Assembly: GCA_035458505.1 (NCBI GenBank)
Contig: DATHZS010000024.1
Coordinates: 23,296 to 87,295 of the forward strand
Reading direction: 5' to 3'
Length of the DNA stretch: 64,000 nt
DNA from: Anaerolineales bacterium
GTDB taxonomy: Bacteria; Chloroflexota; Anaerolineae; Anaerolineales; UBA11579
A program made the position numbers and the translations under genes. Position 1 is the first letter of the stretch. Every line of letters begins with the position of its first letter. This document shows, piece by piece, positions 4,059-39,217 of the stretch. The notes under the pieces were generated by a model. That model was given only the letters and a program-made list of their open reading frames with translations. It was not told where the DNA came from and made no database searches.

Positions 4059-4694
4059 TTATTGATCGGTCTGGGAATTGATCTCATCCCAAACCTTGGG
4101 CAGCACTTCGGATATGATCCCGTAGTGAAACCCGCGCCTGGCGAGGAAGCCATTCATTTTTTTTCTAAATTCCTGCCATTCCAGGCTTTGATAGCGGCGT
4201 GCTTTTTTTCGGGCAGCTTTGAGTGCCAGCGAATGATCGTCAATCTCATTTAGGACATTCGCAATCACCTGGTCTGGGATGCCCTTTTGCCGCAGCTCCA
4301 TTCGGAGAAGCTGCCCTCCCCGCGGGCGGAATTCAGAGCGGTTTTCTACCCACAGTTCGGCAAAATTTGCATCATCCACCAAGCCGCCTCTTTTCAAGCG
4401 GTCGATGATTTCATCGATCACCTGATCCGTATGGCCGTGTTTTGTAAGGTTCTGTCGCACTTCTTGTTCTGAGCGAACCCGGTAGCTCAGAAAATTCATC
4501 GCTCTCTGCAGCGCAATCTCGACATTGTCTTTTGAGAGCAGTTCGGCGATTTTCTCGTCACTCAGTTCTTGCCCGGTATGCAGCCAGGCTGCAACAATTT
4601 TGGACAAGCCGAAAGCGAATTCACCATCAAGATACACATTGACCCGGTTTTTGTTTCGTTTTTGTAGCTTCAATCCGGTGATCTTCTTCGCCAT
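4059..4694 (-). CDS. recX: RecA regulator RecX
   Basis: I chose the internal ATG at 4694 (MAKKITGLKLQKRNKNRVNVYLDGEFAFGLSK..), a typical RecX N-terminus; the track start at 4754 is a TTG. The helical-repeat C-terminus fits, and the gene lies directly downstream of recA. Confidence 0.85.
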   Translation of the reverse strand: MAKKITGLKLQKRNKNRVNVYLDGEFAFGLSKIVAAWLHTGQELSDEKIAELLSKDNVEIALQRAMNFLSYRVRSEQEVRQNLTKHGHTDQVIDEIIDRLKRGGLVDDANFAELWVENRSEFRPRGGQLLRMELRQKGIPDQVIANVLNEIDDHSLALKAARKKARRYQSLEWQEFRKKMNGFLARRGFHYGIISEVLPKVWDEINSQTDQ

Positions 4695-4714
4695 AGCTAT
4701 TATTAAATCAAATG

Positions 4715-4737
4715 CCGTGACACACATGCTGTCACGG
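4715..4737 (-). promoter_or_regulatory. Hairpin / inverted repeat about 20 nt upstream of the recX start
   Basis: Perfect 8-bp arms ccgtgaca (4715-4722) / tgtcacgg (4730-4737) with a 7-nt loop. On the minus strand it is followed by catttgatttaataat. Function unknown (attenuator, processing site or operator). Confidence 0.3.
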
Positions 4738-5031
4738 CTGGATACGATAACCAAAACTATAATCTGGTTCGATTGAATAACAGGTATTTACCTATGGCAA
4801 ACGAGACTCTTTACTGAGCTGCTGTAGCTATATTTTTTGTATTTGTTTGTCCCAGATAGTATCCCGAGTGAAATCTAGTTGCCTCTGGATGTTAGCTAAT
4901 TTGCCTTACTAAGGTTTTTAGTCAAGAAGCACTGTATGCTTCTCCTGGTAATTTCCTGAATATCTTATAATCGTATCAGTCGTGGCCGCGCTGTGGTCAA
5001 GAATGGATTGCGGCCGCTGGCTGGGAGTGGG

Positions 5032-6042
5032 CTAATCGTCTAAGGGCATGATGCCATCAGAGAGTGCTTTTTCTCGGATCGAGATCTCGATCTCCTCAGC
5101 CAATTCAGGGGTCTGGCGCAAATATTCTTTGGTGTTCTCGCGCCCTTGCCCTAATCTTATCTCGCCGTAATTGTAAAAAGAACCGCGTTTGTCAACGATC
5201 TGGAATTCTACGGCGAGGTCCAATATATCTCCATACTTGGAGATACCTTCATTATACATTATATCAAATTCTGCTGCACGAAATGGTGGAGCGACTTTGT
5301 TTTTCACAACTCGCACCCTTGTTCGGCTGCCGATGATATCGCTGCCGGCTTTGATGGATTGGATCCGGCGCACATCCAGTCGAATTGATGAATAGAATTT
5401 GAGCGCCATCCCACCAGTGGTTGTCTCCGGGTTGCCAAACATGACTCCGATTTTTTGCCGCAACTGGTTGGTGAAAATCACCGCGGTGTTGGTCTGTTTG
5501 ATCGCCCCTGAGAGCTTACGCAAGGCCTGGGACATCAGCCTGGCCTGTACGCCCATGGTGGCATCCCCCATATTGCCCTCCAATTCTGAACGCGGGACCA
5601 GGGCAGCCACAGAGTCGATTACCACGATATCTACTGCACCTGACCGGACCAGTGTTTCGGTGATTTCGAGGGCTTGTTCGCCCATATCCGGTTGAGAGAT
5701 GAGCAGATTGTCCACGTCCACCCCACAGCGTGCCGCGTAAGCAGGATCCAGGGCGTGCTCCATGTCGATGAAGGCCGCCTGGCCGCCCATTTTCTGTGCT
5801 TCGGCAACGATATGCTGGCAGATTGTTGTCTTACCGGAGGATTCCGGACCAAAAATTTCAGTGACACGGCCCCGCGGGATCCCTCCGATCCCAAGGGCTA
5901 AGTCTAACGATAATGAACCTGTAGGGATGGCAGCAACATGGAGGCTGTGGGCTTCTCCCAGCCGCATGATGGATCCATCTCCATACCGTTTGGTAATTTC
6001 CTTCAAAGCATTATCCAGTGCTTTGTGCTTTGCGTCATTCAT
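5032..6042 (-). CDS. recA: Recombinase RecA (paralog 1, short weakly acidic C-terminus)
   Basis: 336 aa. Walker [10 protein letters not shown], plus [50 protein letters not shown]. Followed by recX and rny on the same strand. Confidence 0.97.
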
Positions 6043-6331: not shown

Positions 6332-8581
6332 GTGAATTTACGAAATGAAGCATTAGAATATCATCGGCGAGGTGGGAAGCCCGGAAAAATATCTGTCCAG
6401 CCGACCAAACCACTGGAAACGCAACGTGACCTTGCGCTGGCGTATTCTCCCGGAGTGGCAGAGCCTGTGATGGAAATCTATCGGGATCCGGCGAATGCTT
6501 TTGAATATACTTCTCGCGGCAACCTGATTGGGGTAATTTCTAACGGCACCGCGATCCTGGGGCTAGGCGACCTGGGAGCCCTAGCCTCAAAGCCTGTGAT
6601 GGAGGGGAAAGGCGTGCTTTTTAAGAAGTTTGCCGATATTGACGTGTTTGATATCGAGGTAGACAGCACGGACCCTGACGAGTTTATCCGGGTGGTCCGG
6701 GCGATTGCTCCAACCTTTGGTGGAATTAATCTGGAAGATATCAAAGCCCCGGAGTGTTTTTACATCGAACAAGCTCTCAAAGAGATGCTGGATATCCCTG
6801 TCTTTCACGATGACCAGCACGGCACTGCGATTATTACCGCCGCCGGGTTAATGAATGCCCTGGAGATTGTCGGTAAGAAAATTGAGGAGATCAAGCTGGT
6901 TGTGTCCGGGGCAGGTGCGGCAGGTCTGTCCTGTGTCCGCATGGCGATGATGATTGGGGTCCGGCGAGAAAACATTACCCTGAGTGATTACTATGGCGTG
7001 GTGTACAAGGGACGCACAGAGGGGATGAACCCATTTCTGGAAGAGTTTGCCCAGGATACCGACGCCAGAACGCTGGCCGAGATCATCCCGGGGGCGGATG
7101 TGTTTTATGGCCTCTCGGTGGGGGGTATCCTCAAACCGGAGATGGTCAAGCAGATGGCGAAAGACCCGATCATTTTTGCCATGGCGAACCCGGCCCCGGA
7201 AATTGATTACGACCTGGCAAAACAGGCCCGGCCGGATGCGATTGTTGCTACAGGACGTTCAGATTTTCCCAATCAGGTGAATAACGTGTTGGGGTTCCCC
7301 TTTATCTTCCGGGGTGCACTGGATGTCAATGCCAGTGCGATCAATGATGAAATGAAATTGGCCGCGGCCCGGTCGCTGGCTGCTCTGGCAAAAGAAGATG
7401 TGCCGGACAGTGTGCTCAAGGCGTATGGGGTTAATTCGCTGATCTTTGGGCGGGAATATATTATCCCGAAACCGCTTGATCCGCGGGTGCTGCTGTGGGA
7501 ATCTCCGGCCGTGGCGGAAGCCGCGATGAGGACCGGGGTTGCCCGCCGGACGATTGACCTGGAGGGATATCGGGAACAGCTCGCGATGCGCCAGGGCAAA
7601 GGTCAGCAGGTGCGGCACTATCTTCTCAACCAGGCAAAAGCGATTGAGAAAAAGAAAAGGATCGTGTTTGCGGAAGGCGAGGAGGATAAGATCATCCGGG
7701 CCGCGGAGCGGGTATTTTTGGAAGGAATCGGGCAGCCGATCTTGCTGGGACGCCCCGATGTGATCCGGGAACGGTCGGAAATGCTGGGGATCTCCTGTCA
7801 TTCCGAACTGGTAGACCCGCGTTCCAGCGAGCACCTGGAGAGATATATTGAAAGCTTCTACACTCTCCGGCAGCGGAAAGGGGTCACTCCCGGGCTGGCG
7901 CGAAAATTTTTGCGGGATCCTAACGTGTTCGGAAGTATGATGGTTGCGGAGGGCAATGCTGATGCTTTTATCTCTGGCTTAACCTATGAATATCCCGAGG
8001 TGATCCGGCCATCGCTGCAAATTCACCATACTTCTGAAGGGAACCGGATTGCTGCCGGGGTGTATCTGATGATTGTGAATGATCGCGTCTACCTGTTTAC
8101 AGATGCAACGGTCAATATTGATCCATCGGCAGAAGACCTGGCAGAGATTGCCTGCCTGGCAGCGCAATTTGCCACCAAACTTGGGCTGACCCCGCGGGTG
8201 GCAATGCTGTCTTTCTCTAATTTTGGCAGCACAAATCATCCCTTCACCGAGAAGGTGCGCCAGGCAACTGCATTGGTCAAGCAGCGCAACCCTGACCTGA
8301 TCGTGGACGGTGAGATGCAGGCTGATACGGCACTTGTTACGGAGATCATCGATGAGCGCTATCCATTCTCCCAGGTACGGGATGCCAACGTGCTGGTTTT
8401 CCCGTCACTCGAGGCCGCCAATATTGCCTATAAGCTGTTAGATCGTCTTGGCCAGGCCCAGCGTATTGGCCCGATCCTCCTGGGGATGGGTGCTCCCGTG
8501 CACGTGCTGCAAACTGGCGACGAGGTGCGCGATATTGTGAATATCTCTGCCGTGGCGGTTATGGATGCTGCCGGGCGATAA
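6332..8581 (+). CDS. maeB: NADP-dependent malic enzyme, MaeB type (malic enzyme domain plus PTA-like C-terminal domain), copy 1
   Basis: 749 aa. GTG start with [27 protein letters not shown] and SGAGAAG (NAD(P) fold), then a C-terminal phosphate-acetyltransferase-like domain ([21 protein letters not shown]). Confidence 0.93.
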
Positions 8582-8602
8582 GCGGTAAGGAAGACCGTTT
8601 TG

Positions 8603-8636
8603 AACAGGGAACACAAACTGTGTTCCCTGTTTTTTG
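8603..8636 (+). terminator. Intrinsic terminator after maeB copy 1
   Basis: Perfect 13-bp stem aacagggaacaca (8603-8615) / tgtgttccctgtt (8619-8631) with a 3-nt loop, followed by a T-run. Confidence 0.8.
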
Positions 8637-8769
8637 TCGCGCTCGACCGCAGATTAAAGTTTTTCCAGAGAAGATAGATAGAGAATAAAAACGGTTTCCT
8701 TATTTGGGGGTTCTTTCTTTTGAATTATAATTACCAAAAATTGGCACAAAATTCTTCAGGAGAGATGAT

Positions 8770-11025
8770 ATGAGCACATTACGCAGAGATGCACTAGAAT
8801 ATCATAAATTGGATGGCAAGCCGGGGAAGATTTCAATTCTGCCCACCAAGCCTCTGGAAACCCAGAGGGACCTTGCATTGGCGTATTCGCCTGGGGTTGC
8901 CGAGCCGGTATTGGAGATTTCCAAAGATCCGGCTAAAGCTTTTGAGTATACATCACGGGGGAACCTGGTAGCGGTGGTTTCGAATGGAACCGCGATCCTG
9001 GGCCTTGGCAACCATGGCGGTTTGGCTTCAAAGCCTGTGATGGAGGGAAAGGGGGTCTTGTTCAAAAAATTTGCAGATATCGATGTTTTTGACATTGAGC
9101 TGGATTCCATGGATCCGGATGAGATCATTAACGTGGTGAGAGTTTTCTCGCCCACTTTTGGGGGCATCAACCTGGAAGATATCAAAGCGCCGGAATGTTT
9201 CTATATTGAGGAAAAACTCAAGGAAATGCTGGATATCCCTGTTTTTCATGATGACCAGCATGGCACTGCGATCATTTCCAGCGCGGGGTTGCTGAATGCC
9301 CTGGAAATTGTTGGAAAAGACATTTCTGAGATCAAAGTGGCAATCTCTGGAGCAGGAGCTTCAGCGATCTCTTGCGCCAACATGGCGATCCTCCTTGGTG
9401 TGAAAAGAGAAAACGTCCGCATGGTAGACAGCCGGGGAGTGCTGTACAAGGGCCGTACGGAAGGCATGAATAAATATAAGGATGCTTTTGCTGTGGATAC
9501 CGATGATCGAGTCCTGGCTGATGCTGTACGGGATTCGGATGTGTTTTATGGCTTATCTGTCGCGGACATCCTGACCCCTGAGATGATCCTGACAATGAAG
9601 AAAGACCCGATTATCTTCGCTATGGCCAATCCAGACCCCGAAATTAAATACGACCTTGCCAAACAGCACCGCCCGGATGCGATTGTGGCGACTGGCCGCT
9701 CAGATTTTCCTAACCAGGTGAATAATGTGTTGGGTTTCCCCTTCATCTTCCGCGGCGCCCTGGATGTGAACGCCAGTGCAATCAACGATGAAATGAAGCT
9801 GGCGGCTACCTATGCGTTAGCCGCACTCACCAAAGAAGATGTCCCGGACAGTGTGCTGCGGGCGTATGGTGTGGAATCCTTGAAGTTTGGGCGGGATTAT
9901 ATTATCCCGAAGCCGCTCGATCCGCGTGTGCTGCTCTGGGAATCCCCTGCCGTGGCAGAAGCCGCCATGAAGACCGGTGTTGCCCGCAAACAAATCGATA
10001 TCGAAGAATATCGGGAAGCGCTCGCTCTCCGGCAGGGCAAAGGGCAGCAAGTCCGTCACTTTGTTCTCAACCAGGCGAAAGCTGTTGCACCAAAGAAACG
10101 GTTGGTATTCGCAGAAGGCGAAGAACCCAAAATCATTCGTGCTGCTGTACAGGTAGATGCTGAAGGGATTGGCTATCCAATTTTGCTGGGTAACCCGGAC
10201 GTGATTTGCAAAAGGCTGGAAGAACTGGGCCTGGATTGCGAATTGACGATTGTAGACCCCCAAGATTTCGAGCGGATGGAAGAGTATGTAAAAGCCTATC
10301 ATGAACTGCGGCAAAGAAAAGGTGTCTCGGAACGTGAAGCGCGTAAGCGGCTTGTGAATGACCGGAATGTGTTTGGCAATTTGATGGTCAAGATGGGCGA
10401 TGCAGATGCATTTGTATCTGGGCTGACTTATGAATACCCCGAGGTGATCCGGCCTTCTCTCCAAATTCACCACACCGCAGACGGTGTAGAACGGGCGGCG
10501 GGTGTGTATATCATGATCGTCAATGACAAGGTGTATCTCTTTACCGATGCGACGGTCAATATTGAGCCTGGTGCAGAAGATTTGGTCGAGATTGCCTGCC
10601 TGGCGGCTAATTTTGCGGAAAGGCTTGGTTTGGATCCACGCGTGGCAATGCTGTCTTTCTCCAATTTTGGCAGCACGCCGCATCCTCTTTCTTATAAGGT
10701 GAGCAAAGCGGTGGATATGATCAAGATGAAGCGCCCTGACCTGATTGTGGATGGCGAAATGCAGGCCGATACGGCGGTGGTTGCCGAGATTATCGAGCGA
10801 CGTTACCCATTTAGCCAGGTAAAGGATGCCAACGTGCTGGTCTTCCCATCCCTGGAATCAGCGAACATTGCTTATAAGCTGCTTCACAGACTTGGCAATG
10901 CCCAAACGATTGGGCCGATCCTGTTGGGGCTTGGAGCACCAGTCCATGTGCTGCAGACAGGTGATGAAGTACGGGACATTGTCAATATTGCGGCCGTGGC
11001 CGTGATGGATGCTGGCAGCCGCTAA
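8770..11025 (+). CDS. maeB: NADP-dependent malic enzyme, MaeB type, copy 2 (tandem paralog)
   Basis: 751 aa. AGGAGA RBS. Collinear with copy 1 along its full length, with the same motifs. By eye the two are roughly three-quarters or more identical. Confidence 0.93.
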
Positions 11026-11045
11026 ATTTTATTTCATGTCTAATG

Positions 11046-11078
11046 AAAAAAGGAACTGGAGCTCCAGTTCCTTTTTTT
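11046..11078. terminator. Bidirectional intrinsic terminator (maeB copy 2 / ybaK convergent)
   Basis: Palindrome aaaaaaggaactggag|ctccagttcctttttt, with A-run and T-run flanks on both strands. Confidence 0.75.
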
Positions 11079-11115
11079 ACATCATTCAGGGCATTCTCAA
11101 TCCAAATTCTAATGC

Positions 11116-11586
11116 TTAGCTGATTGCGGCTGTTCGGGCATTTGTAATCTTGATCAGGTCTTTGGGCGAGAGTTCGATGTTCAACCCGCGCTGGCCTCCA
11201 GAGATGAATATAATGGGATGGGTCTTGGCGCTCTGGTCGATCACGATCTGGAAGCCTTTATTGATCAGAGACAGGGGAGAAATACCTCCGGTTTGCAGCC
11301 TGGTGAGGCCTTCAGCCTGTTGGTGCGTGGCCACCCGCACTTTTTTCTCATTGATCGCTTTGGCGAGCAGTTTCAGGTCTAGCTCTTTATTTCCTGGAAC
11401 CACTGCCAGAATTGGTTTACCGGGAGTTGTTCGGATTGCCACGATGGTCTTAAACACCAGTTCAGGGGATACTCCCAGGTGTTCGGCAGCCTCGGTTGCT
11501 CCGAGTTTTTCCGGGGGGAGTTCATGGGCGGTATAGGGTATTTTTTTCGCATCCAGCAACCGGGTTACATTATTGATGGTTGTCAT
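11116..11586 (-). CDS. ybaK: Cys-tRNA(Pro)/Cys-tRNA(Cys) deacylase YbaK
   Basis: 156 aa. YbaK/EbsC-family pattern (KTIVAIR.., LAVVPGNKELDLKLLAK, GGISPL, ISGGQRGLNIEL). The start ATG overlaps the kinase stop (ATGA at 11583-11586). Confidence 0.85.
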   Translation of the reverse strand: MTTINNVTRLLDAKKIPYTAHELPPEKLGATEAAEHLGVSPELVFKTIVAIRTTPGKPILAVVPGNKELDLKLLAKAINEKKVRVATHQQAEGLTRLQTGGISPLSLINKGFQIVIDQSAKTHPIIFISGGQRGLNIELSPKDLIKITNARTAAIS

Positions 11587-13019
11587 GCGTATGCTCCAAA
11601 GGGAAGTGTCAGGGTGAAAACAGCGCCACCTTCGGGGTGGTTGGCAGCCGTCAGGGAGCCTTGATGGGCTTCGACCAGGCGGCGGGCAATCGTCAGTCCT
11701 AATCCGGTCCCTCCCTTATCGCGCGCTCGGGACTGGTCGGCACGGAAGAACCGTTCAAAAATCATCGGCAGCAGCTCTTCCGGGATACCGTCTCCAGTAT
11801 CACGGATTTCCAAAATTGCGTGGTTTTCACTGCATTTCAGGCTGAGCTCGACCATTCCATCTGGGGGTGTATGGCGCAGGCTGTTCTGGAGCAAATTGTA
11901 GACAACCTGGTTAATCCGGCCAGGGTCGAGAAATATTTTTGGACATTCAGCTGGGTGTTCGAAACGAAGCTGTAGTTCACCTGCATCAAACTGCGGTTGA
12001 ACATTCTCACAAATTTTTTGTACGAATGAGATGAAATCGACATGAGTTCTTTCGAGGGCCAGGGAGTTGGTGTCCGCCAGGGCGAGTGTCCGCAGGTCTT
12101 CCACCAATTTATTTAAAAGGATGTTTTGTTGAATGATCGGCTGGAGCGTTTCCAGGGTCAGGGGATAGACCCCATCCTGGATGGCTTCCAGGTTTGCTTT
12201 CTGGACTGAAAGGGGGTTCCTAAGCTCATGGGCGATGTCTGCGGTCATTGCCTTGCGAACCTGGTGAGATTCTTCGAGGGATTCCGCCATCCGGTTGAAG
12301 GTGCTGGCTAATTTTTCCAGTTCTGCACCGCCGCTCTCGGGTACTCGTTGTGAGAGATCGCCGCGGGATACCTGATCGGCGGCGCTGGTCAGCCGGCTAA
12401 CCGGGCGAATCAAAAATTGAGCCAGGACCACCGCCAATGCCAGGGCAATCCCGCCGGAGATCAGGACCGTGATCAGCAGCGATTCGTTGAGTGCCAGGGA
12501 CAGGTTGTTGCTGATCACATCGGTCAGGTCGAGGATATTATTTTCCGTGACTAGAAAGCCTGCGATATGACCATCAACCTTAATCGGCAGGGCATTTTCC
12601 AGGATGTCGTTGGGGAGATTTTCTGGCAAGCTGGTGTTTTCAGTCACCAGGACAACCCCGTCTGCATCAGCCAGGGTGAATTCACCTAACATGCCTTGCC
12701 CTCCCATCAACATGTATCCGCTGCGGTATCCACCGCGCCCTTGCCCCATTCCCATACCTTGACCCTGAGAATTTTCAGATTTTTGTCCATTAAAATTTTG
12801 CCCGGAACCCAGGGTGAGCTGGGACGAAACGTCATCCCAGGAACCGTTTTCCTGGTAATAGGCAGCCAATTGGTTCACGATTCGATCGGCACCCAAAAAA
12901 CCGCCACTTTTGGCAAAGGAGGTAATTGTGGTTTGGGTATTGTTCTGGATGACAACGGCCAGAACCACCAATGTGATGATCGTAATCAGGGCAAAGGAAA
13001 GAAACAATCGCAGGCGCAT
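11583..13019 (-). CDS. Sensor histidine kinase (2 TM, extracytoplasmic loop, HAMP, HisKA, HATPase_c)
   Basis: 478 aa. H-box ADIAHELRNPLS, N-box LLQNSLRHT, G-boxes DTGDGIP and GGTGLGLTIA. Two hydrophobic helices flank a ~150-aa loop that contains a G/M/Q-rich tract. Confidence 0.9.
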   Translation of the reverse strand: MRLRLFLSFALITIITLVVLAVVIQNNTQTTITSFAKSGGFLGADRIVNQLAAYYQENGSWDDVSSQLTLGSGQNFNGQKSENSQGQGMGMGQGRGGYRSGYMLMGGQGMLGEFTLADADGVVLVTENTSLPENLPNDILENALPIKVDGHIAGFLVTENNILDLTDVISNNLSLALNESLLITVLISGGIALALAVVLAQFLIRPVSRLTSAADQVSRGDLSQRVPESGGAELEKLASTFNRMAESLEESHQVRKAMTADIAHELRNPLSVQKANLEAIQDGVYPLTLETLQPIIQQNILLNKLVEDLRTLALADTNSLALERTHVDFISFVQKICENVQPQFDAGELQLRFEHPAECPKIFLDPGRINQVVYNLLQNSLRHTPPDGMVELSLKCSENHAILEIRDTGDGIPEELLPMIFERFFRADQSRARDKGGTGLGLTIARRLVEAHQGSLTAANHPEGGAVFTLTLPFGAYA

Positions 13020-13022
13020 GAA

Positions 13023-13715
13023 TTATTCCTTTCTAAAACGGTAGCCGACACCAAAAACAGTTTCAACATAGATAGGCGATTTCGGGACAGGTTCGATCTT
13101 TGCCCGCAGGTTTTTGATGTGAGCGTCAATTGTTCTCTCATAGCCTTCGTAGGCTGTCCCTTCCTGGGTGGCTTCCAACAGCTGAAGGCGCGACTGCACC
13201 CGGCCGGGTTGTTGGGCCAGGGCAGCCAAAAGGTTGAATTCTGTGGGAGTCAGTTCAATCGGGCTTCCATTCCTGGTGACGGAATGTGAGTCCAGATCGA
13301 TCTCGAGGTCTGCAGCGCGCAAGATCTTGCTGGAAGGCAGCCGGCTTGCACTGCCTCCGGCGCGGCGGAGCACGGTACGCACGCGTGCGACAACCTCTCT
13401 TGGGGAATAAGGTTTGGTCACATAATCATCTGCACCAAGCTCCAACCCGATTAACCGGTCAGTTTCTTCAACCCGGGCTGTGACCATGATAATCGGGGTA
13501 TCATCCTGACGCCGGATGGTCCGGGCAACGTCCAGGCCATCCATTCCGGGTAAATTCAGGTCCAAAATCACCAGGTCGGGATGGATGGAGAGCCAGGTTT
13601 CCAGCCCTGTATCTCCCCGATAGGAGCTGATGACCTCAAAACCAGCCTGTTCGAGATAGGACCGGAGGACTTTAACCAATTCAGCTTCATCTTCAATGAT
13701 CAGGATTTTTTTCAT
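13023..13715 (-). CDS. OmpR/PhoB-family response regulator
   Basis: 230 aa. Receiver domain (DLVILDLNLPGMDG) and a winged-helix output domain (..VETVFGVGYRF). Confidence 0.93.
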   Translation of the reverse strand: MKKILIIEDEAELVKVLRSYLEQAGFEVISSYRGDTGLETWLSIHPDLVILDLNLPGMDGLDVARTIRRQDDTPIIMVTARVEETDRLIGLELGADDYVTKPYSPREVVARVRTVLRRAGGSASRLPSSKILRAADLEIDLDSHSVTRNGSPIELTPTEFNLLAALAQQPGRVQSRLQLLEATQEGTAYEGYERTIDAHIKNLRAKIEPVPKSPIYVETVFGVGYRFRKE

Positions 13716-13841
13716 GATTAAATTATAGCCCAGGTTGTGGGTGATGAGTGATGCGGTTGCGTTGTGTTTGGAGTTGAGCAGATAAAAGAATGGCAGGGTT
13801 GTATTCCTGCCATTCCTTCGTTCGCCTTTCCGTGATGATGA

Positions 13842-14360
13842 CTAGCTGTCTGAAGAAAGGCCGTTGGGGCAATTCTGGTAGCCGTATCCACCACCACCAC
13901 CTTTGCCCTGTCCAAAGTTACCCCCCTGATGCCGTCCAAAGCCGCCACCATTTCCCATTCCACCGCCAAAACGACCCCCACCAACTCCAGCGTGTTGCAG
14001 CATATACTCGTACTGCTCCTGGGTGAGCACACCATCAGCGAAAGCGTGCTCAATGGCTTCCGTCCGAATTTCGGTCATCGAAGCGGAAAGGGATTCGAGG
14101 TCTAAATTAAGTTGGCTGGCGATCCCGAAAAAGGTAAGCCCCTCTTCACGGTAAGCGTAGAATTCTTCAACAGTGATTCCAAGGGCATTGGCGAATGCTT
14201 CACTCATATACTCATGAAGCGGATGTTCGCCATCAGCGAATGGGCAGTTTGGGCAACCCCTGGCTTGTGGGCCTTGCCCGCCCTCTTGTGCCATCACCAC
14301 ACCAAATCCCAACAGGCTGATGACACCGACAAGTGATAACGCGATGATTATTTTTTTCAT
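13842..14360 (-). CDS. Secreted hypothetical protein: helical LTxEQ-type core, CPNCP motif, Gly-rich C-terminal tail
   Basis: 172 aa. Signal peptide MKKIIIALSLVGVISLLGFGVVMA. GCPNCPF and a terminal NCPNG. Tail GVGGGRFGGGMGNGGGFGRHQGGNFGQGKGGGGGYGY. I do not recognise the family with confidence. Confidence 0.6.
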   Translation of the reverse strand: MKKIIIALSLVGVISLLGFGVVMAQEGGQGPQARGCPNCPFADGEHPLHEYMSEAFANALGITVEEFYAYREEGLTFFGIASQLNLDLESLSASMTEIRTEAIEHAFADGVLTQEQYEYMLQHAGVGGGRFGGGMGNGGGFGRHQGGNFGQGKGGGGGYGYQNCPNGLSSDS

Positions 14361-14588
14361 TTGTTTACCTCACAGTGTGTAGTTTATGTACTTATTTGTC
14401 TTTAGTGTATCTGCCAGTTATGAAGAAATTGTGAAGGAGATATAAAGATCTGATGGATGTTGAGATCAGCGTTATGAATTAGTTTTATGCAAATAAAATC
14501 AGGTGTAAGATTAAATAGTGCTTTTTTACTATAACCATACAGGTCAAGTGATGTAGAATAAGACATACGTTCGTTTGGAGGTTTCTGA

Positions 14589-14849
14589 GTGAAATTATCT
14601 GGTTTTGAAGAGGCTTCACGCTACAAAGCACTCTCTTCCAGTCAGGTCATCCCTGACCCATTCCGTTGTGTGCAGTGTGGAATCTGTTCATATAACTGCC
14701 CGATTGGAATTGATGTGCGCAGGTTTGCCTGGGAGGGGAAATCGGTTGTAGATAGCCACTGCATCACTTGTGGAGAGTGTATTGCACGCTGTCCGCGCGG
14801 TGTTTTGCGGTTTGGACGTACGGCGATCCTTGAAAGTGGGAACGGATGA
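14589..14849 (+). CDS. Dicluster 2x[4Fe-4S] ferredoxin-domain protein
   Basis: 86 aa. GTG start with GGAGG RBS. Two CxxCxxCxxxCP motifs: CVQCGICSYNCP and CITCGECIARCP. Confidence 0.85.
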   Translation: MKLSGFEEASRYKALSSSQVIPDPFRCVQCGICSYNCPIGIDVRRFAWEGKSVVDSHCITCGECIARCPRGVLRFGRTAILESGNG

Positions 14850-16162
14850 CCAGGTATGTGATTTTGGGGGCAGGCGCGGCTGGAATGAGCGCTGCAGAGA
14901 CGATCCGCGGGGTTGATGACAAAGGGGAAATCGTGTGCGTTACCGCAGAAACAGCCGGGTATTATTCCCGTCCGGGTCTAGCGTATTATCTGAGTAAAGA
15001 ACTCGGTGAGAAATCCCTGTATCCATTTACGAAAAAAGATTTCCAAAATAAGCAACTTATTCTTTACCAAAACGCAGCTGTCCATATCGATACTGCAAAT
15101 CAAGAGGTTTTTTTCAAAGATCGAAAACGGATGACATATGACCGGCTTTTAATTGCGCTTGGGGCGAGGGCGGTTCGGCCGGAAATCCCGGGAAATGGGC
15201 TGGAAGGCGTCGTGTACCTGGATTCGATGGAACAGACCCAATATATGATCAAGAAAGCCCGCTGGGCGAAAACCGCAGTCGTAATAGGGGGAGGGATCAC
15301 TGCGCTGGAAATGGTGGAAGGGCTGCATGCGCGCGGTGTCCATGTGCATTTCTTCCTGAGAGGGCGCACTTATTGGGGACGAGTTTTGGATTCGATCGAA
15401 TCGAAAATCATTCTTGAACGTCTTATAAAAGAGGGCGTTTCTGTTCATTTCAATACAGAGTTGGATCAGATCCTTGGAAAGCGCGGTAAAGTGAAAGCCG
15501 TGGTCACCAAGGATGGACGAACCATCAAATCATCGATGGTCGGATTTGCCATCGGCGTTCGTCCCAGAATTCGTTTAGCGGAGTTGAGCGGATTGGAAGT
15601 CAATCGTGGCGTAATGGTCAATGAATACATGGAAACGAGCGTCCCTGGAGTGTTCTCCGCGGGAGACGTGGCTGAGGTGTATGACCCAGAAGCAGGCAAA
15701 TACGTGATAGACAGTCTCTGGCATATTGCGCGCAGTCAGGGGATTGTGGCGGGACTTAACATGGCCGGGCAGCAGCAGCCCTACATCCGGCGAAGCCCGT
15801 TGAACGTCACCCGCCTGGCAGGGATTACCACGACAATTATTGGAACTTTGGGGAGTGGGGAAAAAGAAGAAGAGGAGTATTCGATCGTACGTGGTGAGAG
15901 TGAGACCTGGCAGCAGATGCCGGATGCGGTCGTTTGCCAGAACAATTTTGAGATTAACCGTTTGCGATTGATGTTAGGCGAAAACAGGATCCTGGGTGCT
16001 CTGCTGATGGGGGATCAGTCCCTCTCGCAGGCCCTTGAAGAATTGGTCGCCAATCAGGTAGATATTACCCCTGTACGGGATTCCCTGGTTAAGAATCGGG
16101 AAACTCTGGGGCCGACGGTGATGAAGTTTTGGGATCAATGGAGGCAGCAGCATGCAGATTAA
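14846..16162 (+). CDS. FAD-dependent NAD(P)H oxidoreductase (pyridine nucleotide-disulfide oxidoreductase fold, ferredoxin/rubredoxin-reductase-like)
   Basis: 438 aa. The start overlaps the ferredoxin stop by 4 nt. VILGAGAAGMSAAE (FAD fold), VVIGGGITALE (NAD(P) fold), FSAGDVAE. No CxxxxC redox disulfide seen. Confidence 0.88.
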   Translation: MTRYVILGAGAAGMSAAETIRGVDDKGEIVCVTAETAGYYSRPGLAYYLSKELGEKSLYPFTKKDFQNKQLILYQNAAVHIDTANQEVFFKDRKRMTYDRLLIALGARAVRPEIPGNGLEGVVYLDSMEQTQYMIKKARWAKTAVVIGGGITALEMVEGLHARGVHVHFFLRGRTYWGRVLDSIESKIILERLIKEGVSVHFNTELDQILGKRGKVKAVVTKDGRTIKSSMVGFAIGVRPRIRLAELSGLEVNRGVMVNEYMETSVPGVFSAGDVAEVYDPEAGKYVIDSLWHIARSQGIVAGLNMAGQQQPYIRRSPLNVTRLAGITTTIIGTLGSGEKEEEEYSIVRGESETWQQMPDAVVCQNNFEINRLRLMLGENRILGALLMGDQSLSQALEELVANQVDITPVRDSLVKNRETLGPTVMKFWDQWRQQHAD

Positions 16163-16943
16163 AAACCTGGAACTGTGGCTGGCGTTCTTTTCGATCGGGC
16201 TGATTACCATTGGGTACCTTGTGGTCGTTTTTTTGTTTGGCGTTCCAGGGGCCAGCGACTTCCTGGGGCATTCACTGGGGATTATCGGGTTTGTGTTGAT
16301 GCTGATGACAGAGATTTTATACAGTATCCGGAAAAGGTATTCCTTGGCCCGCTGGGGCAAGTTGCAGCACTGGCTGTCTTTCCATGTCTACACAGGGCTG
16401 GTCGGCCCGTACCTGGTTTTGCTGCATACTTCGTGGAAATTTAACGGGCTTGCCGGGATCCTGATGTTGATGACGGTGATTATTGTGATCAGCGGTTTTG
16501 TCGGCCGATATTTTTATACGGCGATTCCACGCTCGGCGGATGGAACCCTGATGGAAGCAGACCATCTGCAAAATTTAATCAATCAAAACCAACGTCAATT
16601 GGAGCGTTGGCGAAAATCGAACCCTGAACTCGTCCAACAGGTCGATGATTTGTTTGGTCTGCTCTCCGTTAAAAATAAAAGACTGGGAGGACAATCTGCC
16701 ATTAGAAACCGTTGGCGCAAGGTGGATCGGGAAGCCCTGCCCGAAAACCGCCAGTTTGTCCGGAACCTGCGGTTGCTTTGGGAGCGGCAGGTCATCCTTT
16801 CCCGCCAGCTTGAGTCAATGGCAGGAGCCCGGCGGTTATTGGCCATCTGGCATGCTGTGCATATTCCACTGGGGGTGGCCGTGTTTACGGTTGCGTTTAT
16901 CCATATTGGGGCGGCACTGTATTATGCAACCCTGTTACGTTAA
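16152..16943 (+). CDS. Five-helix membrane protein with two H-x13-H pairs; candidate dihaem-b transmembrane electron carrier (ferric-reductase/NOX-like)
   Basis: 263 aa, overlapping the upstream gene by 11 nt. Four N-terminal hydrophobic helices, a ~100-aa charged soluble insert, then a fifth helix. H78/H92 (FHVYTGLVGPYLVLLH) and H237/H251 (HIPLGVAVFTVAFIH) are each spaced by 13 residues inside predicted helices. The gene is confident; the function is inferred. Confidence 0.6.
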   Translation: MQIKNLELWLAFFSIGLITIGYLVVVFLFGVPGASDFLGHSLGIIGFVLMLMTEILYSIRKRYSLARWGKLQHWLSFHVYTGLVGPYLVLLHTSWKFNGLAGILMLMTVIIVISGFVGRYFYTAIPRSADGTLMEADHLQNLINQNQRQLERWRKSNPELVQQVDDLFGLLSVKNKRLGGQSAIRNRWRKVDREALPENRQFVRNLRLLWERQVILSRQLESMAGARRLLAIWHAVHIPLGVAVFTVAFIHIGAALYYATLLR

Positions 16944-17019: not shown

Positions 17020-18627
17020 ATGAAACGGAGACCATTAGGATGCCTAACAACCGGGGGACTGATTGCATTTGTCGTCACACTGATCGTGGTTGGGACAAGT
17101 TTTGCCATAACTCGCAGTAGACTCTTCAGCCCGGGGCGGTTGAATGCGCAGGCATCTGGCCGGGAAATTGGCGGTGTGAGTTCCCACGCTGATCTTGAAA
17201 TGGATTGTGCTGCCTGCCATCCTGCACCCTGGGATGCTGCCAGGATGGCTGATCTCTGTGCAGACTGCCACCAGGAAGTTTTGGCTGAATTGGCTAACTT
17301 AAATTCACTCCATGGGGCCGTGATGGCTGAGATGGATGAGTTGAATTGCCGTCAGTGCCATACCGAGCATCATGGCGAGACAGCCAGCCTGACCAGATTT
17401 TTGGAGGGAGATTTCCCCCATGAATTGTTGGGGTATTCACTTCAGGCCCACAGCCGGGTAACCTGGGAACGGGAAATTGTTTGTAAAGATTGCCACCAAT
17501 CCGGGTTCACCAGCTTTGAGGTTGCAAATTGCACATCCTGCCATGAACAGTTGAGCCCTGAATTTATGACCGATCACATTTCCTTGTTCGGGAATGCCTG
17601 TCTGGATTGCCATGATGGAATAGAAACCTACGGGACCGATTTTGACCACAATCGTCTGGCCTTCAAGCTGGAATATCTGCACGCTTTCCTTAACTGTGCT
17701 GAGTGCCATGCCGGGGCTACTTCCATACAAATGCTCAAAGACACTCCGCAGGCATGCGAATCTTGTCATCAGAAAGACGATGTACATAGCGACCAGATGG
17801 GGAACCAATGTGGCGTTTGCCATACACCTAAAGGTTGGGAATTTGGCATTTTTGATCATGGAGCAACCGGATTCCTGTTGATCGGCGGACATGATAAGCT
17901 GGAATGTCTCAACTGCCACCAGGATACCACCTACCAAGGAATTGACCCGGCGTGTGTTACCTGCCATGCACAGGACGAACCGCATAATGGCCAGTTCGGT
18001 TTTGAATGCGGGGCCTGCCATACGATTGAAAGGTGGGACCAGATTGTCTTCGATCATTCAGGTACAATTGCAGAGAATTGCAACAGCTGTCACCTGGTAG
18101 ACCAGCCAGCGAACCATTATTCGGGGCAGTGTTCGGCTTGCCACAGCACGAATGCCTGGCTGCCTGCGACATTTGATCATAATGCGGCCGGGGCGACGGA
18201 CTGTATTTCCTGCCATAACGGCAACAAGCCTGCGAACCATTATTCGGGACAGTGTTCGGCCTGTCACAGCACGAGTGCCTGGCTGCCGGCGACCTTTGAT
18301 CACAGCGCGGCAGGGGCAACGGACTGCATTTCCTGCCACAGCGGGAACAAGCCAGCGAACCATTTCAGCGGCCAGTGTTCTACCTGCCATAATACGAATG
18401 CCTGGAAACCAGCGAGTTTTAGTCACTCTTTCCCGTTGAATCACGGCGGGGCCAACCAGCAGTGCCAGCTCTGTCATACCAACAATAACTACAACGCATA
18501 CACCTGCTATGACTGCCATGAGCATAACCAGGCCAAGATGCAGGAAGAGCATAGAGAAGTCAATAATTTCAGTAATAACTGCATTGCGTGCCATCCCGGT
18601 GGCCGAGAGGCCGAAGGGGATGATTAG
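17020..18627 (+). CDS. Membrane-anchored multihaem cytochrome c with 21 CxxCH motifs (paired-CXXCH repeat architecture)
   Basis: 535 aa. N-terminal hydrophobic anchor GGLIAFVVTLIVVGTSFAI. I counted 21 CxxCH motifs and 23 further His residues. The pattern CxxCH-x12-CxxCH..W..FDH recurs. Confidence 0.95.
   Translation: MKRRPLGCLTTGGLIAFVVTLIVVGTSFAITRSRLFSPGRLNAQASGREIGGVSSHADLEMDCAACHPAPWDAARMADLCADCHQEVLAELANLNSLHGAVMAEMDELNCRQCHTEHHGETASLTRFLEGDFPHELLGYSLQAHSRVTWEREIVCKDCHQSGFTSFEVANCTSCHEQLSPEFMTDHISLFGNACLDCHDGIETYGTDFDHNRLAFKLEYLHAFLNCAECHAGATSIQMLKDTPQACESCHQKDDVHSDQMGNQCGVCHTPKGWEFGIFDHGATGFLLIGGHDKLECLNCHQDTTYQGIDPACVTCHAQDEPHNGQFGFECGACHTIERWDQIVFDHSGTIAENCNSCHLVDQPANHYSGQCSACHSTNAWLPATFDHNAAGATDCISCHNGNKPANHYSGQCSACHSTSAWLPATFDHSAAGATDCISCHSGNKPANHFSGQCSTCHNTNAWKPASFSHSFPLNHGGANQQCQLCHTNNNYNAYTCYDCHEHNQAKMQEEHREVNNFSNNCIACHPGGREAEGDD
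18079..18432 (+). repeat. Three tandem ~123-bp (41-codon) repeat units inside the cytochrome gene
   Basis: Units start at 18079, 18202 and 18325. Each encodes C(N/I)SCH..(Q/K)PANH(Y/F)SGQCS(A/T)CH(S/N)T(N/S)AW(L/K)PA(T/S)F(D/S)H... Units 1 and 2 are near-identical at the nucleotide level; unit 3 is more diverged. Confidence 0.85.
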
Positions 18628-18660: not shown

Positions 18661-18689
18661 AAAGGAGCTGAAGTTTCAGCTCCTTTTTG
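18661..18689. terminator. Bidirectional intrinsic terminator (cytochrome gene / uvrB convergent)
   Basis: Stem aaaggagctgaa (18661-18672) / ttcagctccttt (18675-18686), followed by a T-run and preceded by A's. Confidence 0.7.
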
Positions 18690-37021: not shown

Positions 37022-37501
37022 TTATTTGATCGGGATGACCCGGCCTGCGGTCATTGTTTTTAGTTCCTGGGGAGTTAATGGGAACACGGCATTCGGCGTT
37101 CCGGCGGCAGACCAGATTTCATCATACTGAAAGAGATCCTCATCGATGAGCGTGGTGACCGGATTTGGATGACCGACAGGCGGAACACCGCCGATGGCGA
37201 ACCCAGTGCTTTCCCTGACGAAATCGGCATCTGCCTTTTTGATCCGCTCACCGAGTTCCCGGGCGATGGTTTTCTCATCCACACGGTTGGACCCGCTGGC
37301 AATGATCAGGACCGGTTTCTGGCTCACGGCAGTTTTAAAGACCAGGGTTTTGGCAATTTGTCCAAGGGTGCATCCAATCGCAGCCGCAGCATCCGCCGAA
37401 GTGCGGGTAGTGTTATCAAACTCGACAATGGTAAAGTCAAACCCCAAAGCAAGCACGGCTTGCTGAACTTTTTCTGCACTGGGTTTGAGGGGTTTGCTCA
37501 T
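37022..37501 (-). CDS. YbaK/EbsC/ProX-type aminoacyl-tRNA editing domain protein (second, divergent family member in the window)
   Basis: I preferred the ATG at 37501 (MSKPLKPSAEKVQQAV..); the track start at 37546 overlaps the upstream gene. KTLVFK, LIIASGSNRVDEKTIA, GGVPPVGH. Confidence 0.82.
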   Translation of the reverse strand: MSKPLKPSAEKVQQAVLALGFDFTIVEFDNTTRTSADAAAAIGCTLGQIAKTLVFKTAVSQKPVLIIASGSNRVDEKTIARELGERIKKADADFVRESTGFAIGGVPPVGHPNPVTTLIDEDLFQYDEIWSAAGTPNAVFPLTPQELKTMTAGRVIPIK

Positions 37502-37517
37502 TAAATCAATTACCCCG

Positions 37518-38114
37518 TTAGTTCTCTGGCTCAAAGTTTGGATCAACGATCACCTGGACAAAGAATTCATTCCCGAAGGGGTTTCCGTCCGGATCATGCG
37601 CCTGCCAGCTGCTGAAGGCCCGTCCGGCATCCGTGGGGGCTGTGAACAAAATCGAAATCTCGATTTGTTTGCCTGATACTGTTGGGCGCAGGGCGAGGAT
37701 GGTTGAGACTCCCATCGGCAGCCCATCTACGAGGCGCAGGGTGTAGTCGATCTCCCAATTGCAGGAGCCGCTGTTTTCCACCAGCCAGACCTTTTCGATC
37801 TCCTGGGCCGGAGCGACCACTGTATCGTCCGGGATGGTGATGTCATCCAGGAATGACAGGTCGTTTTCGCAGGCAGGCTCGTTGGTCGGTTCAGGTGTGA
37901 ATGTGGGCGTCGCGGCGGGGGTTGGCGTGGAGAGCTGTGGGCTCAGGGTTGGCGGAACAAAAAATTCCGGGGTGGAACGCGCATCTTGCTCTCCACAAGC
38001 GGAGAGCAAGATGGTCAGGGTCAATAAAATCAGGGTGGCGAAATGAATATTTGAGGTAGGTTTATTCCTCAAAATCCTCGTCCGTGAACTCCTCATCAAG
38101 TAAATCTTCTTCAT
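37518..38114 (-). CDS. Lipoprotein with a Pro/Thr linker and an NBR1-FW/Ig-like domain
   Basis: The track ORF (to 38342) runs far into recA. The plausible start is the ATG at 38114 (GGAGAA RBS 7 nt upstream), or alternatively 38096. Signal peptide with lipobox LTILLSAC. The domain [45 protein letters not shown] resembles bacterial NBR1-like domains, from memory. Confidence 0.7.
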
Positions 38115-39171: not shown

Positions 39172-39217
39172 GTGATTAGTACCTCCAAATGTCAAGTTTT
39201 TTAATTTTCTATAGTTT

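Follow-up and report, generated by a model that had tools for sequence, protein, structure and literature searches.

A 21-haem cytochrome of an Anaerolineales bacterium is encoded in a conserved four-gene set together with a ferredoxin, a flavoprotein and a putative dihaem membrane protein

Introduction

The multihaem cytochrome HmcA and the nine-haem cytochromes of Desulfovibrio are periplasmic subunits of transmembrane redox complexes, and in the Hmc architecture an outward-facing multihaem subunit is combined with a b-type membrane subunit and a cytoplasmic iron-sulfur protein. For Thermincola, a relay of several small cytochromes has been proposed, which is fed by menaquinol and leads from an inner-membrane cytochrome via a periplasmic cytochrome and a hexahaem wall cytochrome to the nonahaem surface cytochrome OcwA. 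Here, we report a computational analysis of a gene for a 21-haem cytochrome, and of the three genes preceding it, from an Anaerolineales bacterium (phylum Chloroflexota). The genes are located on a stretch of 64,000 nt (assembly GCA_035458505.1, contig DATHZS010000024.1, positions 23,296 to 87,295 of the forward strand), which is called the window throughout. An earlier sequence-only reading of this DNA had treated the cytochrome alone; together with its partners, it appears as the outer terminus of a redox module leading from the cytoplasm to the outside. With moderate confidence, we propose that the cytochrome is the extracytoplasmic electron-transfer subunit of a transmembrane redox module of four proteins in Anaerolineales.

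Anaerolineales rank among the most abundant bacteria of electrode biofilms, aquifers, anaerobic digesters, and anoxic sediments, and they are usually modelled as fermenters. The passages of two studies that deal with their cytochromes (PMC7399161; bioRxiv 10.1101/2021.08.23.457424) report that the genomes encode unusually many cytochromes with at least 20 haems, that the haem number differs among close relatives, and that porin-cytochrome complexes are absent, which was ascribed to the lack of a Gram-negative envelope; extracellular electron transfer (EET) was suspected. As large cytochromes with variable haem numbers have already been reported for Anaerolineales, the cytochrome by itself is not new. 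It is expected for the taxon, and the notable part is its coupling to NAD(P)H and ferredoxin via a putative dihaem protein. The cytochromes of Anaerolineales have been noted before, but a link between them and metabolism has not been described, and the operon offers a testable pathway. A search of the literature retrieved only general remarks on Anaerolineales cytochromes and nowhere a description of the operon, which is no proof that it is unpublished, and a review on the biotechnology of Chloroflexota nowhere mentions cytochromes.

Results

Layout and conservation of the four-gene operon

The cytochrome gene is the last of an operon of four genes, which encode, in this order, a ferredoxin, a predicted flavin adenine dinucleotide (FAD)-containing flavoprotein, a membrane protein, and the cytochrome (Table 1). 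The ferredoxin gene has a GTG start codon and a GGAGG motif upstream of it, and its stop codon overlaps with the start codon of the flavoprotein gene (ATGA). The flavoprotein gene, in turn, overlaps with the membrane protein gene by 11 nt, and a gap of 76 nt separates the latter from the cytochrome gene. GGAGG-type ribosome-binding sites precede three of the four genes. The open reading frame (ORF) of the cytochrome begins with ATG at position 17020, which is the furthest-upstream start codon of this ORF and is preceded by a GAGGAG motif 8 nt upstream. A scan of the presumed promoter region yielded only weak sigma-70 matches, no more than were obtained with shuffled sequences. The hairpin downstream of the cytochrome gene is a candidate for the operon end.

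Table 1. Coordinates of the operon, its features, and two related modules (positions refer to the window, in the last two rows to the respective locus)
Feature	Position	Strand	Basis or remark
AT-rich intergenic region of 228 bp, presumed promoter region, between the divergent gene for a 172-residue protein and the operon	14361..14588	.	sequence
Ferredoxin, 86 residues, two CxxCxxCxxxCP motifs (C27-P38, C58-P69)	14589..14849	+	motifs
FAD/NAD(P)H oxidoreductase (flavoprotein), 438 residues, predicted cytoplasmic, ferredoxin/rubredoxin-reductase type	14846..16162	+	Pyr_redox_2 (PF07992)
Membrane protein, 263 residues, 5 predicted transmembrane helices, N-in/C-out, putative dihaem cytochrome b	16152..16943	+	hydropathy, charge bias
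Proposed haem ligands H78/H92 (transmembrane helix 3)	16383-16385, 16425-16427	+	invariant His
Proposed haem ligands H237/H251 (transmembrane helix 5)	16860-16862, 16902-16904	+	invariant His
21-haem c-type cytochrome, 535 residues	17020..18627	+	motif count, Pfam, orthologue alignment
N-terminal region of the cytochrome: L6-G7-C8-L9-T10 motif, hydrophobic residues 9-30, candidate S27-F28-A29 site	17035..17109	+	hydropathy, alignment, AlphaFold2
Invariant F-S-P-G-x-L opening the haem domain	17125..17142	+	common to Chloroflexota multihaem paralogues and the Ignavibacteria homologue
Three tandem 41-residue dihaem modules (residues 354-476), CxxCH-x7-H-x4-CxxCH-x4-W-x6-(D/S)H	18079..18447	+	sequence repeats
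11-bp hairpin flanked by an A-run and a T-run, candidate bidirectional terminator	18661..18686	.	between the convergent cytochrome gene and uvrB
Module with 20-haem and 28-haem cytochromes, locus L089, Ignavibacteria/Bacteroidota metagenome-assembled genome (MAG)	7001-14601
Module of locus L090, Ignavibacteria/Bacteroidota MAG	7001-14879		second cytochrome of at least 1720 residues, runs off the locus end

The conservation of this arrangement was analyzed by a scan for loci with related membrane proteins, which used one genome per GTDB species. In total, 503 genomes matched, and the best 80 of these 503 were all from Chloroflexota. An identical order of the four genes was found beside orthologues with 56%, 43%, and 34% identity. 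The flavoprotein gene was located directly upstream of the membrane protein gene in 64 of 67 evaluable loci, and the ferredoxin gene was present in 59 of the 67. At the loci of 46 GTDB species that extend at least 5 kb to either side, a cytochrome with at least 10 haems was found in 45 cases and all four parts in 44 cases. Many loci encode two or three such cytochromes, resulting in 15–80 c-type haems per locus. In all locus cytochromes that were examined, an N-terminal hydrophobic helix is followed by a motif of the form (F/R/N)-S/P-P-G. Most related loci (e.g., L004, 10283-11665) additionally encode a conserved cytochrome of about 490 residues with 18 haems and a variable cytochrome with 16–51 haems upstream of the ferredoxin gene, whereas the operon in the window has only the single downstream cytochrome with 21 haems.

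A parallel module was found in a second phylum. A sister branch of the membrane protein family (about 291 residues, 26% identical) occurs in Ignavibacteria/Bacteroidota. At two loci (Table 1), the sister membrane protein is followed by a protein of 444–446 residues that unites a single transmembrane helix, a Fer4 dicluster domain, and a Pyr_redox domain. The next gene encodes a 20-haem cytochrome that is homologous to the window cytochrome (26% identity, E = 2e-33), and a larger cytochrome follows. The linkage of the genes thus extends over more than 40 species and two phyla. Judged by its sequences, the Ignavibacteria module is a parallel assembly of the four functions and not a strict orthologue. 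Its independent recurrence in a second phylum, together with the fusion of two of the parts, is a strong comparative argument for a joint function of the four proteins. Because Ignavibacteria are diderm, the module appears not to be specific to monoderm walls. At L089, the next gene encodes a protein of 545 residues without a Pfam match and with the C-terminus ...TKRF, which might be an outer-membrane barrel.

Motifs and family of the cytochrome

The cytochrome contains exactly 21 CxxCH motifs, i.e., one haem per 25.5 residues. When the same residues were shuffled 2000 times, on average 0.29 and at most 4 motifs were obtained, and thus the 21 motifs in 535 residues counted in the sequence-only reading are exact and far beyond chance. 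With C8 as the sole exception, the cysteines of the protein (42 of 43) lie within CxxCH motifs, and a motif scan of the 535 residues found no CxxCK, CX3CH, or CX4CH variants. Twenty-three histidines are located outside the motifs. Some of them occur in the recurring contexts (F/I/V)FDH (H210, H280, H346, H387, H428) and PANH(Y/F) (H366, H407, H448), and all of these additional histidines and contexts, which had been pointed out before as FDH and ANH(Y/F), could be located by residue number. The ectodomain is strongly acidic, with 63 Asp and Glu residues versus 21 Lys and Arg residues. No CxxCH motif was found in any other ORF of at least 80 residues in the window. An identical protein from an Anaerolineales MAG is present in GenBank under the name "cytochrome c3 family protein" (HSG25120.1).

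Comparison with Pfam yielded matches above the cut-offs for PF14522 (79.7 bits, cut-off 24.8), PF14537 (63.4 bits, cut-off 25), and PF02085 (58.7 bits, cut-off 22.9), and the Pfam family Cytochrome_C7 matched over three stretches. By these sequence matches the protein is a member of the cytochrome c3 superfamily (class III multihaem cytochromes), in agreement with the c3/c7 type that had been assumed from the motifs. Its relatives number in the thousands, have lengths of 490–930 residues, and are nearly all labelled Chloroflexota or Anaerolineales. A search of the PDB sequences with the single sequence gave no match. A profile of 34 orthologues, in contrast, matched best to structures of the 16-haem HmcA (1z1n, 2e84; E about 1e-6), followed by nine-haem cytochromes and then by a 333-residue chain of 6r2q, which we take to be MtrA. 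Nevertheless, the cytochrome is not an HmcA orthologue, because it reached only 21.1 bits with the HmcA equivalog NF045713, which has a cut-off of 400 bits. The scores were also below the cut-offs for the DmsE/MtrA decahaem family TIGR03508 (30.2 versus 192.2 bits; the operon has no porin gene) and for nanowire_3heme TIGR04257, a weak match with 20 versus 40 bits. Neither OmcS, OmcE, and OmcZ, the structures of which are presumably in the PDB, nor OcwA were among the PDB matches of the profile at E values up to 1. A Foldseek comparison of the cytochrome model with the PDB yielded no match, and the model itself is of low confidence.

Haem ligation

The 34 orthologues, which are 45–73% identical, were aligned. 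Every CxxCH motif outside the indel-prone repeat block turned out to be invariant. The same is true, or nearly so, for the histidines outside the motifs, 22 of 23 of which are invariant or at least 90% conserved, and H118 alone varies. H387 and H407 fall into repeat columns that are prone to indels, and they recur as part of the repeated module. The only conserved methionine is M1. Residues 56–245 harbor 7 haems and 8 conserved histidines, residues 246–535 harbor 14 haems and 14 histidines, and in each of the 34 orthologues the number of spare histidines is at least as high as the number of haems. Because the 22 additional histidines are conserved, methionine is not, and no motif for an open site was found, it is well supported by the alignment that all 21 haems are ligated by two histidines and serve electron transfer only. 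The former description of the haems as probably all bis-His is thereby strengthened. A catalytic haem of the nitrite, sulfite, or hydroxylamine reductase type was considered and rejected, because CxxCK or extended motifs are absent and the spare histidines suffice, and His/Met ligation was rejected because of the lack of a conserved methionine.

Repeat modules and shape of the haem chain

From residue 246 onwards, the cytochrome consists of dihaem units of about 41 residues with the pattern CxxCH-x(5-7)-H-x(4-7)-CxxCH-x4-W-x6-(D/S)H. At the DNA level, a tandem repeat of 123 nt is present at positions 18104-18405 (2.5 copies, 83% matches). The orthologues contain 19, 21, 22, 23, or 24 haems, so that the count across relatives that had been suggested as a check resulted in a range of 19–24. 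As the haem numbers mostly step by two (19, 21, 23), the orthologues seem to differ mostly by whole modules. P0518, which falls into the 90% identity cluster of the window cytochrome, is a true variant with a single additional module. Members of this cluster with a length of 495 residues were also considered as repeat-number variants, but they turned out to be N-terminally truncated gene calls.

The gain and loss of dihaem units would fit a linear chain more easily than a globular cluster, and 25 residues per haem would leave little polypeptide to build a core. MtrA has a length of about 8 nm with 10 haems and GSU1996 of about 12 nm with 12 haems. Scaled from these two proteins, a fully linear chain of 21 haems would be roughly 16–21 nm long; the thickness of Gram-positive walls is quoted as 20–80 nm. 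The AlphaFold2 model of the cytochrome has a mean predicted local distance difference test score (pLDDT) of 64 and a predicted template modelling score of 0.38, and residues 345–468, i.e., the repeat region, have values of less than 50.

The N-terminal segment: anchor or signal peptide

Residues 6 to about 30 form the only hydrophobic segment of the cytochrome, and AlphaFold2 predicts a helix at residues 11–36. A single N-terminal hydrophobic anchor had been described previously; the segment is indeed present and the only one, whereas its role as a permanent anchor is less certain. The accompanying statement that there is no obvious signal-peptidase site was too strong, as S27-F28-A29 obeys the –3/–1 rule. 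An equivalent S-[YF]-A site is present in 26 of the 34 orthologues, and the rule fails in the other 8. In contrast, the absence of a lipobox holds true, since L6-G7-C8 lies 5 residues from Met1 and has no hydrophobic stretch ahead of it. For this reason, export as a lipoprotein was rejected. Export via the twin-arginine translocation pathway was rejected as well, because the two arginines are not conserved and the position is occupied by a mixture of K, R, and N.

One alternative to a retained helix is that the cytochrome is cut after S-F-A29 and that the mature protein of 506 residues is free in the wall space, either as a shed shuttle or as a polymerised wire. The segment looks like a Gram-positive-type Sec signal peptide in several respects: its n-region is positively charged, about 11 hydrophobic residues make up a core between G12/G13 and G25, the residues at –3 and –1 are small in 26 of 34 orthologues, and the c-region has the form G-x-S-[YF]-A (G25-x-S27-F28-A29). 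Moreover, a classical signal peptide is present in the Ignavibacteria homologue, and the common SPGDL motif follows directly after its end. However, hardly any variation is seen on the cytoplasmic side at L6, G7, C8, and T10 (C8 is replaced by F in 3 of 34 orthologues), which would be unusual in a discarded n-region; the –3/–1 rule is broken in 8 of 34 orthologues; and the whole segment from residue 9 to 30 is hydrophobic enough to span the bilayer. The wire form is further disfavoured by the profile searches, which gave no match to the nanowire cytochromes OmcS, OmcE, and OmcZ. We regard cleavage as a realistic possibility, but as the less probable course. The near-invariant LGCLT motif together with a hydrophobic stretch of 22 residues argue for membrane retention, and an anchor is somewhat favoured over a cleaved N-terminus. 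Release of the cytochrome would be a question of localisation and would be compatible with the operon model.

In the sampled loci, LGCLT occurs in those cytochromes whose genes directly follow the membrane protein gene, and it is missing from the paralogues whose genes precede the ferredoxin gene. More speculatively, the sequence LG-(C/F)-(L/I)-T ahead of the helix, with a possible break after the glycine, may be a signal for processing or assembly instead of a passive anchor. Since the invariant G7 is followed by C or F and a hydrophobic helix, a signal of the type IV pilin kind (class III) came into question. It was rejected because S/T at +2 and E at +5, which belong to the bacterial prepilin consensus, are missing.

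The ferredoxin and the flavoprotein

The two CxxCxxCxxxCP motifs imply that the ferredoxin carries two [4Fe-4S] clusters. Its relatives in the PDB are polyferredoxin domains (FwdF with 9e-15, MvhB), and a weak match was obtained to AorA (8c0z_C). The flavoprotein matched Pyr_redox_2 (PF07992) with 187 bits (E = 5.9e-55) and contains two Rossmann motifs, GAGAAG at residues 8–13 for FAD and, in the second Rossmann domain, GGGITA. Neither a signal peptide nor a redox-active cysteine at the position found in CoADR/Nox is present, and no NCBIfam equivalog cut-off was reached. The closest solved relative is AorC, the FAD subunit of a tungsten aldehyde oxidoreductase (8c0z_E, 4.7e-37), and the other PDB relatives are rubredoxin, putidaredoxin, and ferredoxin reductases. 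By sequence comparison, the flavoprotein is a Pyr_redox_2 protein of the ferredoxin-reductase class. The 8c0z entry likens AorC to ferredoxin:NADH oxidoreductases, and it is the iron-sulfur subunit of this enzyme (8c0z_C) that weakly matches the ferredoxin. Because AorC is the closest relative and is likened to these oxidoreductases, an electron path from NAD(P)H via FAD, [4Fe-4S] clusters, and b haems to c haems is proposed.

The membrane protein as a putative dihaem cytochrome b

The membrane protein is annotated as a hypothetical protein at NCBI, and no Pfam match was found for it. Its family is large and comprises 3711 clusters at 50% identity (E up to 1e-3). Between the predicted transmembrane helices 4 and 5, a cytoplasmic helical insert of about 100 residues is located (residues about 125–228, nt 16524-16835). 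Six histidines are invariant among close orthologues. Two of these, H40 and H234, vary in distant members, and down to an identity of 22% only H78, H92, H237, and H251 are invariant, which form two H-x13-H pairs (i,i+14). According to the charge bias, each pair has one histidine near each face of the membrane. Pairs of histidines with a spacing of i,i+14 on two helices are the layout of dihaem b cytochromes, e.g., of cytochrome b of the bc1 complex and of NOX. That the membrane protein binds two b haems is therefore a well-motivated inference.

Similarity to characterised families was detected only at the level of the orthologues. Thirty of 33 orthologues matched PF01292 (prokaryotic cytochrome b561 / Ni-hydrogenase b-type subunit) weakly at E values up to 1, the best with 3e-6, and 4 of 33 matched DUF4405, a family that we assume to share a two-haem cytochrome clan with PF01292. 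PF01794 was not among the families that were matched by at least two of the 33 orthologues. An hhalign comparison with MsrQ of E. coli resulted in a probability of 0.9%. The alignment with FdnI superposes the histidine pair of transmembrane helix 5 on His155/His169 of FdnI, which are presumably a haem-ligand pair, but its probability was only 0.6%. Two distant family members (P0254 and P0256) have N-terminal extensions of about 120 residues with zinc-ribbon-like CxxC...CxxC and GYF_2-like parts. A protein of 548 residues (P0336) was considered as a fusion of membrane protein and cytochrome and was rejected, as the garbled sequence between the two parts indicates a frameshifted gene call.

The weak similarity leads to a quinol-dependent alternative, in which the membrane protein would oxidise menaquinol in the manner of Cbc/CbcL/FdnI and feed the cytochrome with electrons from the quinone pool. 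The flavoprotein and the ferredoxin would then reduce quinone via the same b haems or would have a regulatory or accessory role. PF01292/DUF4405 is the sole detectable similarity, and its characterised members meet quinones (textbook examples are FdnI, HyaC, and CybB). In addition, all well-studied EET chains with cytochromes begin at quinol oxidases (CymA, ImcH, CbcL, and the inner-membrane cytochrome of Thermincola), and H40 at the outer end of transmembrane helix 2, which is invariant in close orthologues, could be a quinol site. Yet H40 and H234 are lost in distant members, in which the four haem-type histidines are kept; the flavoprotein and the ferredoxin are translationally coupled to the membrane protein (64 of 67 loci); and in Ignavibacteria the flavoprotein and ferredoxin parts are fused and tethered to the membrane. 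Such a layout would be difficult to reconcile with quinones as the electron source. Taken together, the quinol-dependent conduit is considered unlikely.

The proposed electron path

In the four-protein module that we favour, cytoplasmic NAD(P)H would reduce the FAD of the flavoprotein, and the electrons would pass on to the two [4Fe-4S] clusters of the small ferredoxin. Both proteins would probably dock on the cytoplasmic helical insert of about 100 residues. The ferredoxin would then reduce the inner haem b (H78/H237) and, via this, the outer haem b (H92/H251) of the membrane protein. From the outer haem b, electrons would enter the chain of 21 c haems. Its N-terminal helix, or binding to the membrane subunit, could keep this chain on the outside of the membrane. 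The electrons might cross the envelope along the chain, and the acceptors might be minerals of Fe(III) or Mn(IV), humics, shuttles, electrodes, or partner cells. A net outward flow is favoured because the redox drop and the membrane potential both point outward. In a fermentative organism, the module might thus serve as an electron vent for the regeneration of NAD(P)+ and not as a coupling site. The most far-reaching version, a quinone-independent supercomplex with 26 cofactors (FAD, two [4Fe-4S] clusters, two b haems, and 21 c haems) between NAD(P)H and the exterior, appears rather doubtful.

Several observations weigh against the proposed path. The binding of b haems is deduced solely from the histidine pattern, and proteins of the PF01292 type usually trade electrons with quinones. 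The window membrane protein itself reached only 12.9 bits with PF01292 (cut-off 30.1 bits, E = 0.098), and hhalign comparisons of the trimmed membrane protein profile with CybB, MsrQ, and FdnI of E. coli were not significant. PDB sequence searches with the full protein and with the insert removed resulted exclusively in spurious matches to coiled-coil proteins and G-protein-coupled receptors, and no significant relative of the membrane protein was found with Foldseek. The AlphaFold2 models are mediocre (pLDDT 64 and 67). At one full-length locus (L068), the membrane protein occurs without any of the partners. The Ignavibacteria flavoprotein is only 23% identical to that of the window and belongs to a different Pyr_redox subfamily. 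Lastly, the conserved S-[YF]-A sequence may mean that the cytochrome is cut from its N-terminal helix.

The direction of the flow could also be reversed. In such an inward uptake, Fe(II), a cathode, or a syntrophic partner would act as electron source, and the b haems, the ferredoxin, and the flavoprotein would conduct the electrons to NAD(P)+. All cofactors are reversible, low-potential bis-His haems would be near the NAD(P)+/NAD(P)H couple, and the Chloroflexota isolate Ardenticatena maritima gives cathodic as well as anodic current. However, the cytochromes of A. maritima have no more than 7 haems and are a different set, and the operon contains no module for energy input. Uptake would oppose the inside-negative membrane potential and, in the case of Fe(II), would also be uphill in redox terms. 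Inward uptake is therefore judged to be improbable.

Neighbouring genes in the window

Four genes are oriented divergently from the operon (positions 11116-14360, minus strand) and encode YbaK, a BaeS/MtrB-like histidine kinase, an OmpR-type response regulator, and a glycine-rich secreted protein of 172 residues. The synteny of YbaK, histidine kinase, response regulator, and hypothetical protein, followed by the operon and then by uvrB ... PHP, is kept at locus L002, which has a 43%-identical orthologue. The two-component system may regulate the operon.

The two-component system is also of importance for a fourth explanation, i.e., that the operon has a non-respiratory role in the envelope, as an assimilatory ferric reductase, as an electron buffer, or as a supply for repair or detoxification similar to MsrQ-MsrP. 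The neighbouring system resembles envelope-stress regulators (BaeSR-like scores), and its synteny in L002 would fit such a role, as would the combination of an NAD(P)H flavoprotein with a dihaem membrane protein, which recalls MsrQ/Fre and the eukaryotic FRE/NOX proteins. However, 15–80 c-type haems per locus would be a very large outlay for assimilation or repair, and no partner enzyme such as MsrP was found in the examined loci. We consider an envelope role of this kind very improbable.

About 4 kb upstream of the operon, two tandem paralogues of a MaeB-type malic enzyme with a fused phosphotransacetylase-like domain are encoded (6332-8581 and 8770-11025, both on the plus strand). For the second copy, the best NCBIfam match was NADP-dependent malic enzyme, with a score below the cut-off. 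It would be pure speculation to regard the malic enzymes as a local NADPH source for the operon. The window further contains two recA genes at 5032-6042 and 38062-39222 (both on the minus strand), which are 33 kb apart and encode proteins with 80% identity, and recX adjoins the first of them (4059-4754). Genes for YbaK-type tRNA-editing proteins are likewise doubled (11116-11586 and 37022-37546). The duplication of recA and ybaK could be a real paralogy or could indicate a chimeric MAG contig. A protein of 503 residues with similarity to Baseplate_J (PF04865, E = 3.6e-9) is encoded at 50105-51619 (minus strand) amid housekeeping genes (alaS, mltG/YceG), and it could have remained from a phage or a contractile injection system.

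Discussion

If the proposed module operates as described, it would explain EET by fermentative Anaerolineales and, in its fused form, by Ignavibacteria in sediments, aquifers, and digesters. Reducing equivalents could be dumped on iron and manganese minerals, humics, and partner cells without a classical quinone chain, and this would change the assignment of carbon and iron cycling and of interspecies electron transfer in those habitats. In its supercomplex version, the module would be a split bacterial functional counterpart of NOX/FRE, extended by a length-adjustable haem rod and built on an uncharacterised dihaem family. For this large unannotated family of membrane proteins, a first functional hypothesis with four named histidines is now available. 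The dihaem repeat of 41 residues, with a copy number that differs even among close relatives, offers a natural system in which to study how the length of a haem wire is adjusted to the thickness of the envelope.

Comparison with known systems

HmcA and NhcA are the nearest solved relatives of the cytochrome, and the likeness to the Hmc, Tmc, and Nhc complexes consists of an outward multihaem subunit of the c3 superfamily with mostly bis-His haems, a b-type membrane subunit (putative in the operon), and a cytoplasmic iron-sulfur protein. The differences are considerable. The window cytochrome has 21 haems instead of 16 and its own N-terminal hydrophobic helix, and its neighbours are the genes for the ferredoxin, the flavoprotein, and the membrane protein instead of hmcBCDEF. 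The membrane subunit belongs to a family different from those of Hmc and Tmc, and NarI/HdrE-like or NrfD-like subunits are absent. The cytoplasmic part seems to be formed by an NAD(P)H flavoprotein and a ferredoxin and not by an HdrD-like CCG protein.

With the CbcL and CbcBA proteins of Geobacter, the operon would share the combination of a dihaem b domain, which in Geobacter is of the PF01292 kind (HydC/FdnI), with a multihaem c domain at the start of EET, according to textbook knowledge of these complexes. In contrast to the operon, the Geobacter proteins are quinol oxidases without a flavoprotein or ferredoxin, the b and c parts of CbcL are fused, and they have 7–9 haems. Orthology to the Geobacter Cbc complexes was not detected at the sequence level in Pfam and NCBIfam scans. 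The textbook features of NOX/FRE and MsrQ-Fre, i.e., NAD(P)H, flavin, two b haems bound by histidine pairs about 13 residues apart, and an acceptor on the outside, resemble those proposed here. However, no homology was detectable, and the flavoprotein is of the Pyr_redox_2 type with two dinucleotide-binding domains and is not FNR-like. In addition, an iron-sulfur ferredoxin would be inserted into the path, and the acceptor would be a chain of 21 haems.

The build-up from tandem c7/c3-like units with about 25 residues per haem is similar to that of GSU1996. GSU1996 has one His/Met haem per domain, whereas the window cytochrome has no conserved methionine, and its repeat is a dihaem unit of 41 residues instead of a trihaem c7 domain.

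The cytochromes described by Arbour et al. 2020 (PMC7399161) and West-Roberts et al. 2021 (bioRxiv 10.1101/2021.08.23.457424) are from the same taxon and are alike in having at least 20 CxxCH motifs, transmembrane segments, variable haem numbers, and a hypothesised role in EET. In their passages on these proteins, the two papers treat the cytochromes alone and do not mention partners such as the ferredoxin, the flavoprotein, or the membrane protein. Lastly, Thermincola provides the likeness of a cytochrome-based electron transfer across a monoderm-type envelope that is 20–80 nm thick. In contrast to its relay, loci of the window type encode one or a few very long cytochromes, which are apparently fed by a flavoprotein and a ferredoxin.

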